From Candidatus Limnocylindria bacterium (lineage in GTDB: Bacteria; Chloroflexota; Limnocylindria; P2-11E), in NCBI GenBank assembly GCA_035935465.1, contig DASYXA010000089.1:9692-73691 (forward strand): DNA of 64,000 bases. Direction: 5' to 3'. Position numbers and translations under genes: made by a program. Each line of letters opens with the position of its first letter. Position 1 is the first letter of the stretch. Under the pieces are notes generated by a model. That model ran no database searches. It was not told the origin of the DNA and saw only the letters and a program-made list of their open reading frames with translations. Shown here piece after piece: positions 22,297 through 51,118 of the stretch.

Positions 22297-24153
22297 CTAT
22301 GAGCCCACCAGCTGCTGCGTGAGGAACTCGACGATCCGCGCGTGGGCCCGATCCTGGTTCGCGCGCTTCGTGAAGCCATGGCCCTCGTCCTCGAAGACCA
22401 TGTACTCGACCGGCACGCCGCGGGCGCGGAGCCGCTCGACGACCTGATCGGACTCCTCCTTCGGGACGCGCGGATCGTTCGTGCCCTGCACCACGAGCAT
22501 CGGGCAGCGGACCTTGTCCATGTGGTTGATCGGCGAGCGCTCCACGAGCTTCGCGCGATCGGTCTCGAGGTCGCCGATCCAGAGCTTCAGGAACCGCCGC
22601 CAGTTCGGCTGGGCATGCTCGATCATCGTGACGAGGTTCGCGACGCCGAACACGTCGACCGCGCAGTTCCAGCGGTCGGGCATCGTCGTGACGCACACGA
22701 GCGTCGCGAACCCGCCGTACGAGCCGCCGTACACCGCCAGGCGCTGCGGATCGATGCGCGGGTCGGCCGCCATCCAGTCGGCGACCGCGCGGAGATCCCG
22801 CGCGTCGATGCCACCCCAGTCGCGGTGGATCGCCTTCTGCCAGCGCAGGCCGTAGCCCGTGGAGCCGTGGATGTTCGGCACGACGAGCGTGATGCCGCGG
22901 TCGACGAGCGACTGGAGGTACGCCATGCGGTCCGGGAATCCGGGGCGCGACTGGCCCTCAGGGCCGCCGTGCGGGTAGAGGACCGCGGGGGTGCGGCCGG
23001 CCGCGCCGTTGGGGCGGAAGACGAAGCACGGGATGTCCCCGTCGGCGGCCGCGATCCGGATGAGCTCGGGCTCGACCAGGTCGGAGGCCCGCACGGTGCG
23101 CGCGGTCTCGAACACCTTCCGGGCCTCGCCGGTGCGCAGATCGAGCACCCAGAGCTGCGGCGCGTCGGTCGCCGATGTGCGGTGGTACGCCGCGAGCGAT
23201 CCGTCGGCGGAGAGGATCAGGTCCTCGCACACGCCCCCGAGCGCGCGCTCGCCCCCGCGCTTCCGGTCCCGTTGCCAGCGGAGCGTCGAGTAGCCGTCCT
23301 CGTTCACCGACCAGATCTGGGCCCGACCATCGGCCGACGACGCGGCGAGCTCGACGTCCCACTCCGGAGCGTCGATGATCTCGCGCGCGCCGGTCGTCGC
23401 GTCGTACGCCGCGAGGTAGAGGTGCTCGCGCCCGGCGTCGGTCATCCCGAGCGGCCGGCCGTCGGCCAGCCACCCCGCGGGCACGTTCGAGACGTCGCTC
23501 CCATCTTCAGGACGGTGCGTGGTCAGGTGCCGCAGCGCGCCGGACGCGGCGTCGACGATGAACAGGTCCTGATCCGTGTTGGCCTGCACGCGCATCACGA
23601 GGAGCGCCTGCCCGTCGGGCGACCAGCCGCCGGCGACGTACCAGGTCGGACCGGCCACGAGGACCCGCTCGGTCGCGGTCTCGACGTCCTCGACGACGAT
23701 GTCCATGTCGGTGGGCTGGCGCGCGTTCGACGAGAATGCGACGCGCTTCCCGTCCGGCGAGGTCGCGTTCCACGACAGGAGCCGCTGCACGCGCTCGCCG
23801 TCGCTCCACGAGAGCTTCTCGACCCGCTCGTCACTGCGCGCGACGTACAGCTGGTGGAGCTCGGTGCCGCCGCGATCCGCCGCGCCGATCAGGTCGCCGC
23901 GCTTCGACCAGCTGAGCGAGCGGAGCGCGGCGCCATCGACGCCGAGCGCCGGCGACGGCTTGCCTGGCTTCGCGAGCGGCAGCGTCCAGGCGGAGTACGT
24001 GCCGAGGCCGAGATCGGCGATGAACGCGAGGGTGCCGTTGTCGGGCGAGATCGCGAGCGCCGAGCGGCACGAGAACCGGCGGGTCGTGTGCGGGATCGGC
24101 GCGATGCGCTCGCGAGGCTCGAAGTCGGACATCGGCCGGACCACGAGCGGCAT
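22297..24153 (-). CDS. S9-family serine peptidase (prolyl oligopeptidase / acylaminoacyl-peptidase type) with an N-terminal beta-propeller
   Basis: GGSYGG nucleophile motif with Asp/His in the C-terminal domain (FEDEGHGF). TolB-like repeats fill the N-terminal half. Confidence 0.8.
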   Translation of the reverse strand: MPLVVRPMSDFEPRERIAPIPHTTRRFSCRSALAISPDNGTLAFIADLGLGTYSAWTLPLAKPGKPSPALGVDGAALRSLSWSKRGDLIGAADRGGTELHQLYVARSDERVEKLSWSDGERVQRLLSWNATSPDGKRVAFSSNARQPTDMDIVVEDVETATERVLVAGPTWYVAGGWSPDGQALLVMRVQANTDQDLFIVDAASGALRHLTTHRPEDGSDVSNVPAGWLADGRPLGMTDAGREHLYLAAYDATTGAREIIDAPEWDVELAASSADGRAQIWSVNEDGYSTLRWQRDRKRGGERALGGVCEDLILSADGSLAAYHRTSATDAPQLWVLDLRTGEARKVFETARTVRASDLVEPELIRIAAADGDIPCFVFRPNGAAGRTPAVLYPHGGPEGQSRPGFPDRMAYLQSLVDRGITLVVPNIHGSTGYGLRWQKAIHRDWGGIDARDLRAVADWMAADPRIDPQRLAVYGGSYGGFATLVCVTTMPDRWNCAVDVFGVANLVTMIEHAQPNWRRFLKLWIGDLETDRAKLVERSPINHMDKVRCPMLVVQGTNDPRVPKEESDQVVERLRARGVPVEYMVFEDEGHGFTKRANQDRAHARIVEFLTQQLVGS

Positions 24154-35864: not shown

Positions 35865-35883
35865 GACATGCGGAGATCGATAG

Positions 35884-36684
35884 CTGACTGACCAGCTCGC
35901 GGCCGTCATCCTCGGCCTGGTACAGGGACTCACCGAGTTCCTGCCGGTGAGCTCGACCGCCCACCTCATCCTGGTATCCGACGTCCTCAAGCTCGACCCT
36001 GCGAAATTCGGACTCAGCTTCGATGTCGCGCTGCACCTCGGGACCGCGCTCGCGGTCCTCGTCTACTTCGCCTCGGCCTGGATCGGCCTCCTCGGCGACG
36101 TGCTGCGCGGCCGCTGGCGGCTGCCGATCGTCATCGTCGTCGGGACGATCCCCGGGGCCGTCGCCGGCGTGCTCCTCGAGACCGCGGTGTCCACGACGCT
36201 GCGGAGCGCCGTGTACATCGCGGTCGGTCTGGTCATCGGATCCGCGGTCTTCGTCCTCGCCGAGCGCCTCGGGGCGCGGCGGCGCCGGCTCGAGCGCGCG
36301 TCGCTCGTCGACGCGGTCGTCATCGGCGCGGCCCAGGCCCTCGCGCTCCTTCCCGGCATCTCGCGATCGGGCATCACGATCTCGGCCGGGCTGTTCCGCG
36401 GTCTCGAGCGCGGCGACGCGACGCGGTTCTCGTTCCTCCTGGCCACACCGATCATCCTCGGCGCGGGCGCGAAGACGCTGCTCGACGCGCGCAAGCTCTC
36501 CGGCCTCACCGCGGAGCTGGACATCGTCCTCATCGGCTTCGCGGTGTCGTTCCTCTCGGGCCTCGCGGCGGTCGCGTTCATGGTCCGGTACCTGCGCACG
36601 CATTCGCTGAGCGTCTTCGTCATCTACCGCGTCGCGCTCGCGGTCGTCATCCTCGCGGCGGTGGCCGTCGGCGCGCTGAGCTGA
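35884..36684 (+). CDS. uppP: Undecaprenyl-diphosphatase UppP/BacA
   Basis: LTDQLAAVILGLVQGLTEFLPVSSTAHLILVS...GISRSGITISAG. The conserved N-terminal helix lies upstream of the only canonical start (GTG 35947). An in-frame TAG at 35881-35883 is followed at once by CTG at 35884. Confidence 0.75.
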   Translation: MTDQLAAVILGLVQGLTEFLPVSSTAHLILVSDVLKLDPAKFGLSFDVALHLGTALAVLVYFASAWIGLLGDVLRGRWRLPIVIVVGTIPGAVAGVLLETAVSTTLRSAVYIAVGLVIGSAVFVLAERLGARRRRLERASLVDAVVIGAAQALALLPGISRSGITISAGLFRGLERGDATRFSFLLATPIILGAGAKTLLDARKLSGLTAELDIVLIGFAVSFLSGLAAVAFMVRYLRTHSLSVFVIYRVALAVVILAAVAVGALS

Positions 36685-47710: not shown

Positions 47711-48859
47711 CTACGCCTTCAGCAGCTCTTCCGCGATGATCATCCGCTGGACCTCGCTGGTCCCTTCATAGATCCGCAGGATCCGGGCATCCCGATAGGC
47801 CCGCTCCACCGGCGACCCCTTCATGTAGCCCATGCCGCCGTGGATCTGGAGCACCCGGTCGACGACCCGCCCGGCCATCTCCGACGCGAACACCTTCACC
47901 ATCGCCGCCTCGTTCGACGCCCGGACGCCGCGGTCGAGCTTGGACGCGGCGTCGTACACCATCAGGCGCGCGGCGTGGATCTCGACGGCGGAGTCGGCGA
48001 GCATCCACTGGATCGCCTGGTTCACGGCGATCGGCTTGCCGAACTGCACGCGTCGCTTGCTGTGGGCGATCGCCAGCTCGAGCAGGTGCTGGCTCGAGCC
48101 GACCGCGCCGGCCGCGAGCGAGACGCGGCCGATGTCCAGCGCGCCGAGCGCGGTCCGGAAGCCGCTGCCGACCGTCCCGCCCAGCACGTTCTCCTCGGGC
48201 ACCTCGCAGTCCTCGAACACGAGCTCGCCGGTGTAGCTTCCGCGCAGGCCCATCTTGTCGTCGACCGCGCCGACCCGGAATCCACTGAAGCCCTTCTCGA
48301 CGATGTACGCGGTGATCCCGCCCCGCGGGCCGAGGCTCCGGTCGTTCGCCGCGTACACCACGACGACGTCGGCGATCGGCCCGTTCGTCACCCAGATCTT
48401 CGTACCGTTGAGGATCCAACGATCCCCCTTCTTCACCGCGGTCGTCTGGATCGACGCCGCGTCGGAGCCGCTCGAGGGCTCCGTCAGGGAGAACGCCGCG
48501 ATCTTCCGGCCCGCCGTCAGGTCGGGGAGGTACTGCCGCTTCTGGGCCTCGGTCCCGCCCAGGTAGATCGACATCGAGCCGATCGAGGTGTGCGCGCCGA
48601 TGAGGTTCGAGAACGCCGCGGACGCGCGGCCGAACTCCTCCAGCGCGACGCAGTAGCCGAGGTCGCCCGCGCCGACGCCCCCGTACTCCTCCGGGAACGG
48701 GAGCCCGAAGAACCCGAGCGTGCCCATCTCCCGGAGGATCGCGTCGGGGATCTGGTCGTCGTCCTCGACCTGCTCCGCGATCGGAACGAGCCGGCCCTCC
48801 ACGAACTCGCGCACCGTGCGCTTGAGCAGGAGGAGCTCCTCGGGGAGGTCGAAGTCCAC
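47711..48859 (-). CDS. Acyl-CoA dehydrogenase
   Basis: 382-aa ACAD fold (GGMGYMKGSPVERAYRDARILRIYEGTSEVQ). Confidence 0.85.
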   Translation of the reverse strand: MDFDLPEELLLLKRTVREFVEGRLVPIAEQVEDDDQIPDAILREMGTLGFFGLPFPEEYGGVGAGDLGYCVALEEFGRASAAFSNLIGAHTSIGSMSIYLGGTEAQKRQYLPDLTAGRKIAAFSLTEPSSGSDAASIQTTAVKKGDRWILNGTKIWVTNGPIADVVVVYAANDRSLGPRGGITAYIVEKGFSGFRVGAVDDKMGLRGSYTGELVFEDCEVPEENVLGGTVGSGFRTALGALDIGRVSLAAGAVGSSQHLLELAIAHSKRRVQFGKPIAVNQAIQWMLADSAVEIHAARLMVYDAASKLDRGVRASNEAAMVKVFASEMAGRVVDRVLQIHGGMGYMKGSPVERAYRDARILRIYEGTSEVQRMIIAEELLKA

Positions 48860-48869
48860 GCGCGGGAGC

Positions 48870-49562
48870 CTAGACCTCGGCGCTGTGGATGGCGGCGATG
48901 CCGAAGGTCACGCGTTCGTAGGTCACTCGGACGAATCCGGCCTCGCCGAGCATCGCGGCGAGGCGGTCGGCGTCGGGGAACCGGCGCAGCGAGCGCGGCA
49001 GGTAGCGGTACGCGTCGCGGTCCCCACCGAGCAGCGCCGCCGCCGCCGGAAGGACGCGCTCGAGATAGAAGGAGTAGAGCCGGCCGAACGCGGGGTTCGG
49101 CGGGTGCGACAGCTCGAGCACGACCGCTCGGCCCCCGGGCCGCAGGACGCGCCTGAACTCGCCGAACGCGCGCGCGAGGTCACCGACGTTGCGGACGGTG
49201 AAGCCGGTGACGATCCGGTCGACGCTGGCGTCGGGGAACGGCAGCCGCTCGGCGCTACCCACGAGCGGGACGATGCGAGACGCCTGCGCCCCGGCGGCGC
49301 GGCGCGCGAGCACCGCGAGCATCCCGGCCGACAGATCGACCGCCGTGACGCGCGCGCCGCGCGCCGCGGCCGCGAACGACAGATCGCCGGTCCCGGCACC
49401 GACATCGAGGACCGTCGCGCCCGGCCGGATGTCCGCGCGCGCGATCGCGCGCCGCCGCCAGCCGACGTCGGTGCCGAACGAGAGCACCCGGTTGAGGACG
49501 TCGTAGCGCGCCGCGATGCGGTCGAACATCGTCGCGATCTCGCGGTCGTGCGCGTCGTTCAT
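48870..49562 (-). CDS. ubiE: Demethylmenaquinone / ubiquinone methyltransferase UbiE/MenG
   Basis: MFDRIAARYDVLNRVLSFGTD...VLDVGAGTGD. Confidence 0.8.
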   Translation of the reverse strand: MNDAHDREIATMFDRIAARYDVLNRVLSFGTDVGWRRRAIARADIRPGATVLDVGAGTGDLSFAAAARGARVTAVDLSAGMLAVLARRAAGAQASRIVPLVGSAERLPFPDASVDRIVTGFTVRNVGDLARAFGEFRRVLRPGGRAVVLELSHPPNPAFGRLYSFYLERVLPAAAALLGGDRDAYRYLPRSLRRFPDADRLAAMLGEAGFVRVTYERVTFGIAAIHSAEV

Positions 49563-49579
49563 CAGCCGCGAACGCTAAC

Positions 49580-50308
49580 CTGTCAGCCATCGGCACCGCG
49601 CTGTTCATCTACGCCCATCCCGACGACGAATCGTTCGTGTCCGGCACGCCCATGACGCTTGCCGCCGCGGGACACCGGATCGCGCTGCTCACGCTCACCC
49701 GTGGCGACGCGGGCCTCTGGCTCGGCAAGACGTTCGGTTCGTGGTCGAAGCCGGAGCTCGGGGCGGAGCGCGCGAACGAGTGGGCCGCGGCCGTGGCCGT
49801 CATCGGCTACCACTGGTCGACGCTCCTGCGGTATCCGGACGGCGGCCTCAAGGACGCGCCGGCCGAGGTCATCACCGCCGACGTCGTCGAGGCGATCCGC
49901 GCGGTCCGCCCCGACGTGGTCTGCACCTTCGGCCCCGAGGGCGCGGGCAGCGAGCACGACGACCATCGGTCCACGTCGTACTTCGCCGCGCGCGCCTTCG
50001 CGCGCGCGGCGCTCGCCGACCAGTACCCCGAGCGCGGCGAGCCGCATCTCGCCCGGCGGCTCTACTTCAGCGCGACCCCATACACGGCCGGCGCACCTGC
50101 CGCGTTCGGCGCGACGACGCCGACCCATGTCATCGACATTTCGGCATTCGAGAAGCGGAAGGCCGACGCATTCGAGTGCCATAAGACGCAGCACAAGGAC
50201 CGCGCCTTCTTCTACGACCTCCTGAAGCGCCGCGCAGGCAAGGAGTATTTCCATCTCGCGATCGACCGCACCGGGGCGCCGACGGGCTCCGACGACCTGC
50301 TGGCCTAG
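49580..50308 (+). CDS. PIG-L / LmbE-family N-acetylglucosaminyl deacetylase
   Basis: The zinc motif AHPDDES lies upstream of the first canonical start (GTG 49637), and no ATG/GTG/TTG precedes it in frame. CTG at 49580-49582 sits 1 nt after a TAA and gives (M)SAIGTALFIYAHPDDE. Confidence 0.65.
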   Translation: MSAIGTALFIYAHPDDESFVSGTPMTLAAAGHRIALLTLTRGDAGLWLGKTFGSWSKPELGAERANEWAAAVAVIGYHWSTLLRYPDGGLKDAPAEVITADVVEAIRAVRPDVVCTFGPEGAGSEHDDHRSTSYFAARAFARAALADQYPERGEPHLARRLYFSATPYTAGAPAAFGATTPTHVIDISAFEKRKADAFECHKTQHKDRAFFYDLLKRRAGKEYFHLAIDRTGAPTGSDDLLA

Positions 50309-51118
50309 ATGGCCCTCGCGACGCTCCCACTCGTGCTCTGCGTGCTCATGGTCGAGCTCGCGATCGGCGGCGCGTTCCTGATGTGGTACATCGACCGCAC
50401 CGAGACGGCGCCCAGCGGATTCCTGAAGCTCACCGCGTTCGTCGACGCCGGCGCCATCGCGTTCGCCGGCGTGCTCCTACCCGCGCTGCCGCGCGGCGAC
50501 CTCGTCGCCCGCGCCGGCCTGGATGGGACCGCCCTCGCCGCGTTCGCGCAGGTCTTGATCGTCGTGATCGTGCTCGTCGTCGCGCAGCTCGCCGCAGCGT
50601 TCACGCCGTGGAAGGCCGCGCGCGAGGCGGTCGGCATCATCACGATCCTGGCCGGCATGTTCGACCTCGTGCTCGCGGCGGTCGCGCGGCCGTCCGGCTC
50701 CCCGTTCGACGTGTTCGCCCTGCTCGCGCTCCCGCTCGGCGCGCTCGCCCTCGGCGGCGCGGACGCGGCGATGCTCCTCGGCCATTGGTACCTCGTGACG
50801 CCGAAGCTGTCAGCGGGACCGCTCCAGCGCGCGGCGCTCGTGCTCGTCGGCGCGGTCGTCCTCCAGATCGTGCTCGTCGCGATCTCCGTCGCTCGCGGTG
50901 AGCTCACGCTGAACATGGAGCTTGCGTTCGTCGTGGCCGCGGGACTGCGCGTCGGAGTGGGTCTCTTCATGACGCTCGCGGTCGCGCTCGCGGCATGGTG
51001 GACCGCGCGCCTGAACACGCAGGCTTCGACGGGCCTCCTGTTCGTGGGCCTGGGCTGCGTGCTCGCGGGCGAGGTGAGCGCGCGGGTGCTGTTCTTCCTG
51101 ACCGGGGCCGCCGTCTGA
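50309..51118 (+). CDS. Hypothetical multi-TM membrane protein
   Basis: 269-aa product, 7-8 TM helices. ATG immediately after the LmbE TAG. Confidence 0.55.
   Translation: MALATLPLVLCVLMVELAIGGAFLMWYIDRTETAPSGFLKLTAFVDAGAIAFAGVLLPALPRGDLVARAGLDGTALAAFAQVLIVVIVLVVAQLAAAFTPWKAAREAVGIITILAGMFDLVLAAVARPSGSPFDVFALLALPLGALALGGADAAMLLGHWYLVTPKLSAGPLQRAALVLVGAVVLQIVLVAISVARGELTLNMELAFVVAAGLRVGVGLFMTLAVALAAWWTARLNTQASTGLLFVGLGCVLAGEVSARVLFFLTGAAV

Follow-up and report, generated by a model that had tools for sequence, protein, structure and literature searches.

Introduction

Near-cognate AUH start codons that are conserved over long evolutionary distances have been described in infC and pcnB; infC (IF3) starts with AUU, AUC or AUA, and this codon is the target of IF3 autoregulation (PMC5499595, PMC2830850), with AUC being used by infC in some species (PMC5499595), and Escherichia coli pcnB starts with AUU (PMC5499595, PMC2830850). 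In Deinococcus, an ATC start of dnaA (Deide_00010, DR0002, Dgeo0001) that is conserved in three species has been proven by N-terminal TMPP proteomics (PMC2830850). Near-cognate starts in E. coli operate at 1-2% of the level of AUG (cited in PMC5499595). A further described class is that of leaderless genes, which are marked by a TANNNT motif approximately 12 nucleotides (nt) upstream of the start (PMC3160421, PMC4007540). Here, we describe a gene for a predicted zinc deacetylase of the PIG-L/LmbE family that has no canonical start codon upstream of its catalytic motif, that most likely starts with ATC, and that may be transcribed as a leaderless mRNA. The gene is located in a 64,000-nt stretch of DNA (the window) from a Candidatus Limnocylindria bacterium.

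The PIG-L gene resembles Deinococcus dnaA in that both are housekeeping-type genes with a conserved N-terminus 5' of any canonical start, in that the ATC is conserved among related species, in that gene callers have assigned heterogeneous, mis-annotated N-termini, and in that the organism is rich in TAnnnT leaderless mRNAs. The two cases differ in gene family and phylum; in addition, the Deinococcus ATC gene is leadered, with a 5' untranslated region of >5 nt (PMC4007540), whereas the architecture in the window predicts a leaderless 5'-AUC, and the start in the window is predicted from sequence. With infC and pcnB, the PIG-L gene shares a long-conserved AUH start, implying that a start that is weak or sensitive to IF3 has been selected for. 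By contrast, the infC codon is the sensor of an autoregulatory loop operated by its own product and infC mRNAs carry leaders and Shine-Dalgarno (SD) sequences, while nothing links the PIG-L deacetylase to initiation fidelity. With the leaderless genes of Actinobacteria and Deinococcus-Thermus, the PIG-L gene shares a TAnnnT box 6-7 nt from the start (first T at -12/-13), the lack of an SD sequence and the recurrence of this arrangement at many genes in the window; unlike in those genes, AUC replaces the defining 5' AUG or GUG (PMC3160421, PMC4633059, PMC4007540). Overall, the PIG-L case fits the established conserved AUH starts, as no canonical start is found between the in-frame stop and the conserved N-terminus and as the ATC aligns with ATG or GTG in orthologues; what is new is the gene family, the phylum and a context that appears to be leaderless. 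We found no literature on an ATC start of the present gene.

Materials and Methods

The window comprises positions 9,692-73,691 (forward strand) of contig DASYXA010000089.1 in assembly GCA_035935465.1 and has a GC content of 71%; all coordinates given here are window positions. A homologue search yielded 417 relatives, mostly from soil metagenomes and from metagenome-assembled genomes (MAGs) of Candidatus Limnocylindria (Chloroflexota), and the 120 best homologue clusters among these (P0001-P0120) were surveyed for their N-termini. The DNA of 36 orthologous loci from JGI, ENA, Logan and NCBI MAGs was aligned on the HPDDES motif; the upstream analysis covers 35 of these loci (32 distinct sequences), and the remaining locus, L086, was counted apart as it is cut too close to the contig end. 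A neighbour-joining tree was used to group the loci with ATC and their sister lineages with ATG or GTG, and motif invariance was assessed in an alignment of 29 homologues (A1).

Results and Discussion

The PIG-L frame has no canonical start codon upstream of its catalytic motif

The following features define the 5' region of the gene.

49589 to 50308, plus strand: proposed coding sequence (CDS) of a PIG-L/LmbE-family (PF02585) zinc deacetylase, with ATC start, 239 codons and TAG stop at 50306-50308
49493 to 49495, plus strand: TGA, the actual in-frame upstream stop, inside the antisense ubiE gene
49580 to 49582, plus strand: CTG, the start preferred in the earlier note on this DNA, rejected here as a conserved start
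49589 to 49591, plus strand: ATC, the proposed initiation codon (AUC read by initiator tRNA), supported by the orthologue column, by CDS starts at NCBI and by codon periodicity
49616 to 49630, plus strand: HPDDE motif, placed by alignment with MshB (1Q74) and TT1542 (1UAN) and invariant in the 29 aligned homologues
49637 to 49639, plus strand: GTG, the first canonical in-frame start, rejected here; its 223-amino-acid (aa) product would lack strand beta-1 and HPDDE

The PIG-L frame is open from TGA 49493-49495, and the 47 codons from 49496 to 49636 include no ATG, GTG or TTG. A frame walk thus bore out the observation of the earlier note that HPDDE is encoded 5' of GTG 49637, the first ATG, GTG or TTG in frame; since the catalytic AHPDDE lies 5' of every canonical start, the conclusion drawn there, i.e., that the protein must begin at a non-canonical codon, is supported as well. 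A TAA to which that note had drawn attention is indeed present at 49576-49578, 1 nt before the CTG at 49580, but it is out of frame here and does not bound the open frame. In-frame near-cognate codons are CTG 49580, ATC 49589, CTG 49601 and ATC 49607. While 16 consecutive codons that lack a start codon would not be surprising by chance, the oddity is that the PIG-L profile begins 5' of all canonical starts; the PF02585 match (93.6 bits against a Pfam cutoff of 28.2) covers profile positions 1-128 of 129, and profile position 1 corresponds to the Leu codon at 49601. AHPDDE is included in the product only if translation begins at or 5' of approximately 49601.

A missing start in a single draft sequence usually reflects an error, and ATC is one base away from ATG; a point error (ATG to ATC, or a lost GTG) or a frameshift that hides an upstream start would hence be an obvious explanation. 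The probability of such an assembly or sequencing error is negligible, however. Projects that are unrelated to one another (JGI, ENA, Logan and NCBI MAGs) yielded the same ATC, in a total of 25 distinct sequences, most of which lack a usable canonical start, and the downstream frame and length agree with those of relatives. Furthermore, the plus strand from 49563 to 49636 includes no ATG, GTG or TTG in any of its three frames, so a single indel cannot restore a canonical start. Recurrence of this layout in many independent assemblies excludes a sequencing error that created or removed a start, and all orthologues retain HPDDE; neither of the two circumstances that the earlier note had named as potential refutations therefore applies.

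Comparative evidence points to ATC 49589 as the start codon

Nine codons upstream of the HPDDE His, 25 distinct sequences among the aligned loci have ATC, four have ATG (L014, L017, L018, L087) and three have GTG (L010/L011, L015, L166/L167); L086 likewise has GTG. The ATC loci form two clades, one including the window (79-87% amino acid identity to the window) and a second one with approximately 65% identity, and each of these has sister lineages with ATG or GTG. Downstream of the ATC, beginning with the next codon, the three codon positions are conserved at 0.98/1.00/0.81 within the window clade, no periodicity is seen upstream, and the most variable bases are the four at -5 to -2 from the ATC. 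In the 65% clade, an in-frame TAA or TAG is located four codons upstream of the ATC (TAA CGT GAC GCC ATC GGC ACC ...), and three loci (L084, L161, L162) lack any canonical start before HPDDE. In L163, L171 and L172, which are 85-87% identical to the window, the distance from TAA to ATC is 9 nt rather than 10, which places the TAA in frame and the CTG out of frame; this 1-nt difference indicates that 49576-49588 tolerates non-triplet indels and is therefore non-coding.

Public annotations also include this start. The ATC column is the modal N-terminus among the 120 best clusters (26 of 120; MATVLF.., MGTVLF.., VGTVLF..), and the NCBI MAG records DATLDU010000044 and DASYQK010000257 (L161 and L162) annotate the orthologous CDS from the ATC; position 1501 of these loci reads atc ggc acc ..., with the product given as MGTALFVYAHPDDE or MGTVLF... 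An ATC call by the NCBI pipeline in two orthologues means that the call itself is not unprecedented. In addition, residue 5 of TT1542 aligns with residue 5 of the ATC-start product, so that the two N-termini are equal in length. Overall, these data support, with considerable confidence, ATC 49589 as the start codon, and we infer that AUC itself is the codon used; this second candidate of the earlier note is thus the one backed by comparison. The predicted product is MGTALFIYAHPDDE... (239 aa), with the predicted N-terminal peptide (M)GTALFIYAHPDDESFVSGTPMTLAAAGHR.

The candidate that the earlier note had favoured was translation from CTG 49580, which would give MSAIGTALFIYAHPDDE. CUG is a known weak start, this codon is in frame in the window as well as in L001, L002, L004, L081, L164, L165, L168 and L169, and starts 2-3 codons upstream of the ATC have been called at GTG in P0078 and P0002. 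However, the CTG is replaced by CTC in L003, is shifted out of frame and preceded by an in-frame TAA in L163, L171 and L172, and is absent from the 65% clade, where the stop precedes the ATC by four codons; the residues between CTG 49580 and the ATC are also the most variable positions. In addition, the CTG overlaps the final T of a conserved -10-like box (described below), such that a transcript starting at the ATC would not include it, and the GTG found in frame in L173/P0078 is formed at the end of the corresponding box (TAACGT|G), being in frame only with a 7-nt spacer. We thus regard a CTG start as improbable.

Initiation at GTG 49637, or at ATG 49652 (the choice of gene callers), would yield a truncated and probably inactive protein, or else the locus would be a decaying pseudogene. 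Callers of the Prodigal type do report 218-aa products (MKLAAAGH...) in 35 of the 120 best clusters, including P0001, which is near-identical to the window gene. These products start at an internal ATG and lack HPDDE; proteins starting at 49637 or 49652 lose strand beta-1, two of three Zn ligands and the catalytic Asp. Moreover, the 16 codons from the ATC to 49637 are conserved at the amino acid level, with changes mostly at third positions, and purifying selection acts on the amino acid sequence encoded by 49592-49636. Conservation of this kind over at least 25 distinct sequences, down to approximately 57-65% identity, is incompatible with untranslated or pseudogene sequence, and GTG 49637 is not conserved as a start. 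This explanation is accordingly very improbable.

A number of other candidates were also considered and rejected. CTG 49601 and ATC 49607 are CTC and GTG/GTC/GTA, respectively, in relatives, and a start at either would truncate strand beta-1. Long N-terminal extensions (253-260 aa, e.g., L081) begin at a GTG inside antisense ubiE; these extensions are heterogeneous and unconserved and represent gene-caller artefacts. The MSAIGT.. form (P0078/L173) results from the box-tail GTG being in frame with a spacer of 7 nt, and the in-frame GTG of P0002/L163 lies within the 6-nt spacer, two codons upstream of the ATC. Finally, +1/-1 frameshifting from an out-of-frame GTG in TAACGTGAC (65% clade) was discarded, as the window clade does not conserve this GTG.

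Of the 120 closest clusters of homologues in public protein collections, more than half are miscalled. Besides the 35 clusters without HPDDE, 29 start inside strand beta-1, including 20 at 'YAHPDDE' (GTG of LF-V-YA) and 9 at 'LFxYAHPDDE' (GTG replacing Ala or Val), and approximately 30 carry heterogeneous, unconserved extensions of 10-33 residues that are read from antisense ubiE. A start at a rare ATC would explain why gene finders cut off HPDDE.

A promoter-like box upstream of the ATC is consistent with a leaderless mRNA

The 26 nt that separate ubiE from the PIG-L gene include two overlapping boxes.

49576 to 49581, plus strand: TAACCT, a -10-like TAnnnT box 7 nt upstream of the ATC, the predicted promoter of a leaderless PIG-L mRNA
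49572 to 49577, minus strand: TAGCGT, a -10-like box that precedes the ubiE ATG by 9 nt and shares its TA with the plus-strand box; A 49572 and the TA are conserved across clades

With a spacer of 6 or 7 nt, a TAnnnT box precedes the start column in 35 of 35 loci, in the forms TAACCT, TAACGT, TAGCGT, TACGCT, TACCGT and TAGCAT; unlike the inner bases, the T, the A and the final T do not vary. Together, the overlapping divergent boxes form a back-to-back promoter-like module, ACGCTAACCT. Every related locus conserves the AnnnTAnnnT skeleton of this module, which is present in its reverse-complement version, ACGTTAGCGT, in the ATG/GTG clade. TAnnnT hexamers are rare in the 64-kb window, with 51 copies on both strands, 20 of which precede an ATG or GTG at a spacer of 6, 7 or 8 nt (7, 7 and 6 cases, respectively), as compared to approximately 1.2 expected per spacer and 0-3 cases at other spacers. 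Examples include the acyl-CoA dehydrogenase GTG at 48859(-) and the starts at 24144(-), 29159(-), 37511(+), 41904(-), 58003(+), 51690(-) and 44001(-). The leaderless-type TAnnnT architecture is hence the dominant start signal in the window. SD-like motifs, by comparison, were not found within 25 nt upstream of 49589 and showed no positional enrichment before starts across the window. An Rfam scan of 49200-49900 gave only a chance microRNA match (E = 0.23; 19 bits against 100).

The spacing of the box and the lack of an SD-like motif make a leaderless or near-leaderless mRNA probable; given the ATC start, we put the chance that the PIG-L mRNA is leaderless at even or slightly better, with transcription predicted to begin at or next to A 49589. 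The TAnnnT signature of leaderless genes is present here, with TAACCT at 49576-49581, a 7-nt spacer, enrichment in the window and no SD-like motif.

Several points weigh against an ATC start on a leaderless mRNA. With regard to the start codon, Ile, Val and Met are chemically similar, so that a column of I, M and V is by itself no proof of a start, and CTG 49580, which is in frame in the window, might serve in this genome alone. With regard to the mRNA, a scan for full sigma-70 promoters (-35 plus -10) and terminators found nothing, as was the case for shuffled sequences, and only the -10-type TAnnnT signal is informative in DNA with 71% GC. The -10-like box could serve ubiE only, even if the minus-strand box does not extend to its last T. 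The 5'-terminal AUG or GUG that characterizes the leaderless class is AUC in the window. In Mycobacterium smegmatis, a 5' ATG or GTG was necessary and sufficient for leaderless initiation, with ATC used as the negative control and reported as non-functional at the leaderless position, and ATC at a leadered position allowed only 0.2% survival (PMC4633059). In D. deserti, 916 of 916 leaderless mRNAs use ATG or GTG and the sole gene with an ATC start is leadered (PMC4007540). By analogy, a leaderless 5'-AUC would be expected to be a very weak start.

A serious alternative, although one that we rate as rather unlikely, is that translation starts at AUC 49589 but on an mRNA with a leader, produced from a promoter within the ubiE coding sequence, with SD-independent initiation and with the TAnnnT box serving ubiE or another function. 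The known AUC and AUU starts (infC, pcnB and Deinococcus dnaA) are on leadered mRNAs (PMC4007540, PMC5499595), mycobacterial leaderless initiation requires RUG (PMC4633059), and the minus-strand TAGCGT does overlap the plus-strand box. On the other hand, no SD-like motif is found upstream, and all 35 loci retain the final T of the plus-strand box, which is not part of the minus-strand box, at a constant spacing of 6-7 nt to the start column; this spacing dominates gene starts in the window. We therefore continue to prefer a leaderless mRNA.

Predicted function and neighbouring genes

The gene product and its surroundings include three further features.

49955 to 49966, plus strand: HDDH, the second metal-binding motif, aligned with MshB H144-P-D146-H147; columns H126/D127/D128/H129 of A1 are invariant
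48870 to 49562, minus strand: divergent ubiE/MenG-type demethylmenaquinone methyltransferase gene, ATG at 49562 (PF01209, 1.4e-58; TIGR01934, 219.5 bits), syntenic in relatives
50309 to 51118, plus strand: gene for a 269-aa multi-pass membrane protein that abuts the PIG-L stop (TAG|ATG, 50306-50311), with the same neighbour in relatives

AHPDDE (49613-49630) aligns with MshB H13/D15/D16, and HDDH aligns as the HxDH motif that gives the third metal ligand (HPDH in MshB). In MshB, H13, D16 and H147 are the metal ligands and D15 is the base. By alignment, the His and the second Asp of HPDDE would thus be Zn ligands and the first Asp the general base. Like MshB (1Q74), TT1542 (1UAN), BshB1, BshB2 and Mca, the predicted protein has a Rossmann-like PF02585 domain, an N-terminal AHPDDE, an HxDH motif and a similar length; the GC content at third codon positions of the proposed CDS is 0.92. 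The best explanation is that the product is a functional zinc-dependent de-N-acetylase of the PIG-L/LmbE type, as predicted from its motifs. Unlike for MshB, BshB1, BshB2 and Mca, however, scores in the window fall far below the NCBIfam equivalog cutoffs (BshB1, 76.8 vs. 182.5; BshB2, 53.1 vs. 195.25; MshB, 67.5 vs. 224.35; Mca, 66.1 vs. 277.15), the partner is a novel 269-aa membrane protein and the gene is divergent from menG.

The membrane protein has no Pfam or NCBIfam match. Its gene is always 3' of the PIG-L gene, with the PIG-L stop abutted or overlapped, in the window as well as at the same position in L161-L172; the TAG|ATG abutment suggests that it is probably co-transcribed with the PIG-L gene and translationally coupled on the same transcript. 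With regard to the divergent gene, the Pfam Ubie_methyltran match begins at protein residue 2 and profile position 2. A block consisting of acyl-CoA dehydrogenase and ubiE/menG, followed by the divergent PIG-L and membrane protein genes, is syntenic across Limnocylindria contigs.

A second gene without a canonical start

A Pfam scan of 23 other open reading frames (ORFs) with start-less 5' regions in the window identified only one other case, uppP/bacA (ORF 35884-36684, plus strand), in which the conserved domain also begins 5' of every canonical start. An in-frame TAG is located at 35881-35883, and the first ATG, GTG or TTG is GTG 35947, the Val codon of the catalytic EFLPVSSTAH motif; position 1 of the BacA profile (PF02673) is residue 7 of the open frame, and an alignment with the E. 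coli UppP chain in 5OON pairs residue 5 with residue 17 of that chain. CTG 35884 is the likely start and, with GGAG 8 nt upstream, this gene would be SD-led rather than leaderless. A 7-codon ATG mini-ORF at 35868-35891 (ATG CGG AGA TCG ATA GCT GAC TGA) overlaps the putative CTG in another frame, which may be chance. Together, uppP and the PIG-L gene hint that non-canonical initiation may be unusually frequent in the class Limnocylindria.

Proposed mechanism and implications

Taken as a whole, a PIG-L deacetylase that starts at ATC 49589, probably on a leaderless 5'-AUC mRNA, is the explanation that we consider likely. In this model, RNA polymerase would use the box TAACCT (49576-49581), back-to-back with the -10 box of ubiE/menG, which would set the start of the PIG-L transcript at or near A 49589. 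The transcript would be leaderless or nearly so, would begin with 5'-AUC and would lack an SD sequence, and AUC 49589 would be decoded by initiator tRNA as fMet to give the 239-aa product. Initiation at a weak AUC would then keep the enzyme, as well as the membrane protein encoded by the abutting downstream gene, at a low and tuned level. A near-cognate codon has been kept for so long, even though a single C to G change gives ATG, that selection for a weak start is implied, and the weak codon may serve to limit expression.

Miscalled starts mean that function prediction and structure modelling of this PIG-L family are systematically compromised, which start calling that is aware of ATC would fix. 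That a leaderless 5'-AUC mRNA is translated in Limnocylindria, and that this state has persisted in two sizeable clades of a single orthologue family, is a more tentative proposition, to which we give somewhat less than an even chance. If true, it would break the rule that a 5' RUG is necessary for leaderless initiation, and it would point either to relaxed scrutiny of start codons in 70S/leaderless initiation in this lineage or to a deliberate ultra-weak start that sets enzyme dosage. If leaderless, the gene would also represent a natural test of non-RUG codons in leaderless initiation, a question that mycobacterial reporter work answered negatively. Finally, uncultured Limnocylindria appear to make heavy use of the TAnnnT leaderless architecture, and gene calling in these bacteria, which are abundant in soil, can draw on this signal.

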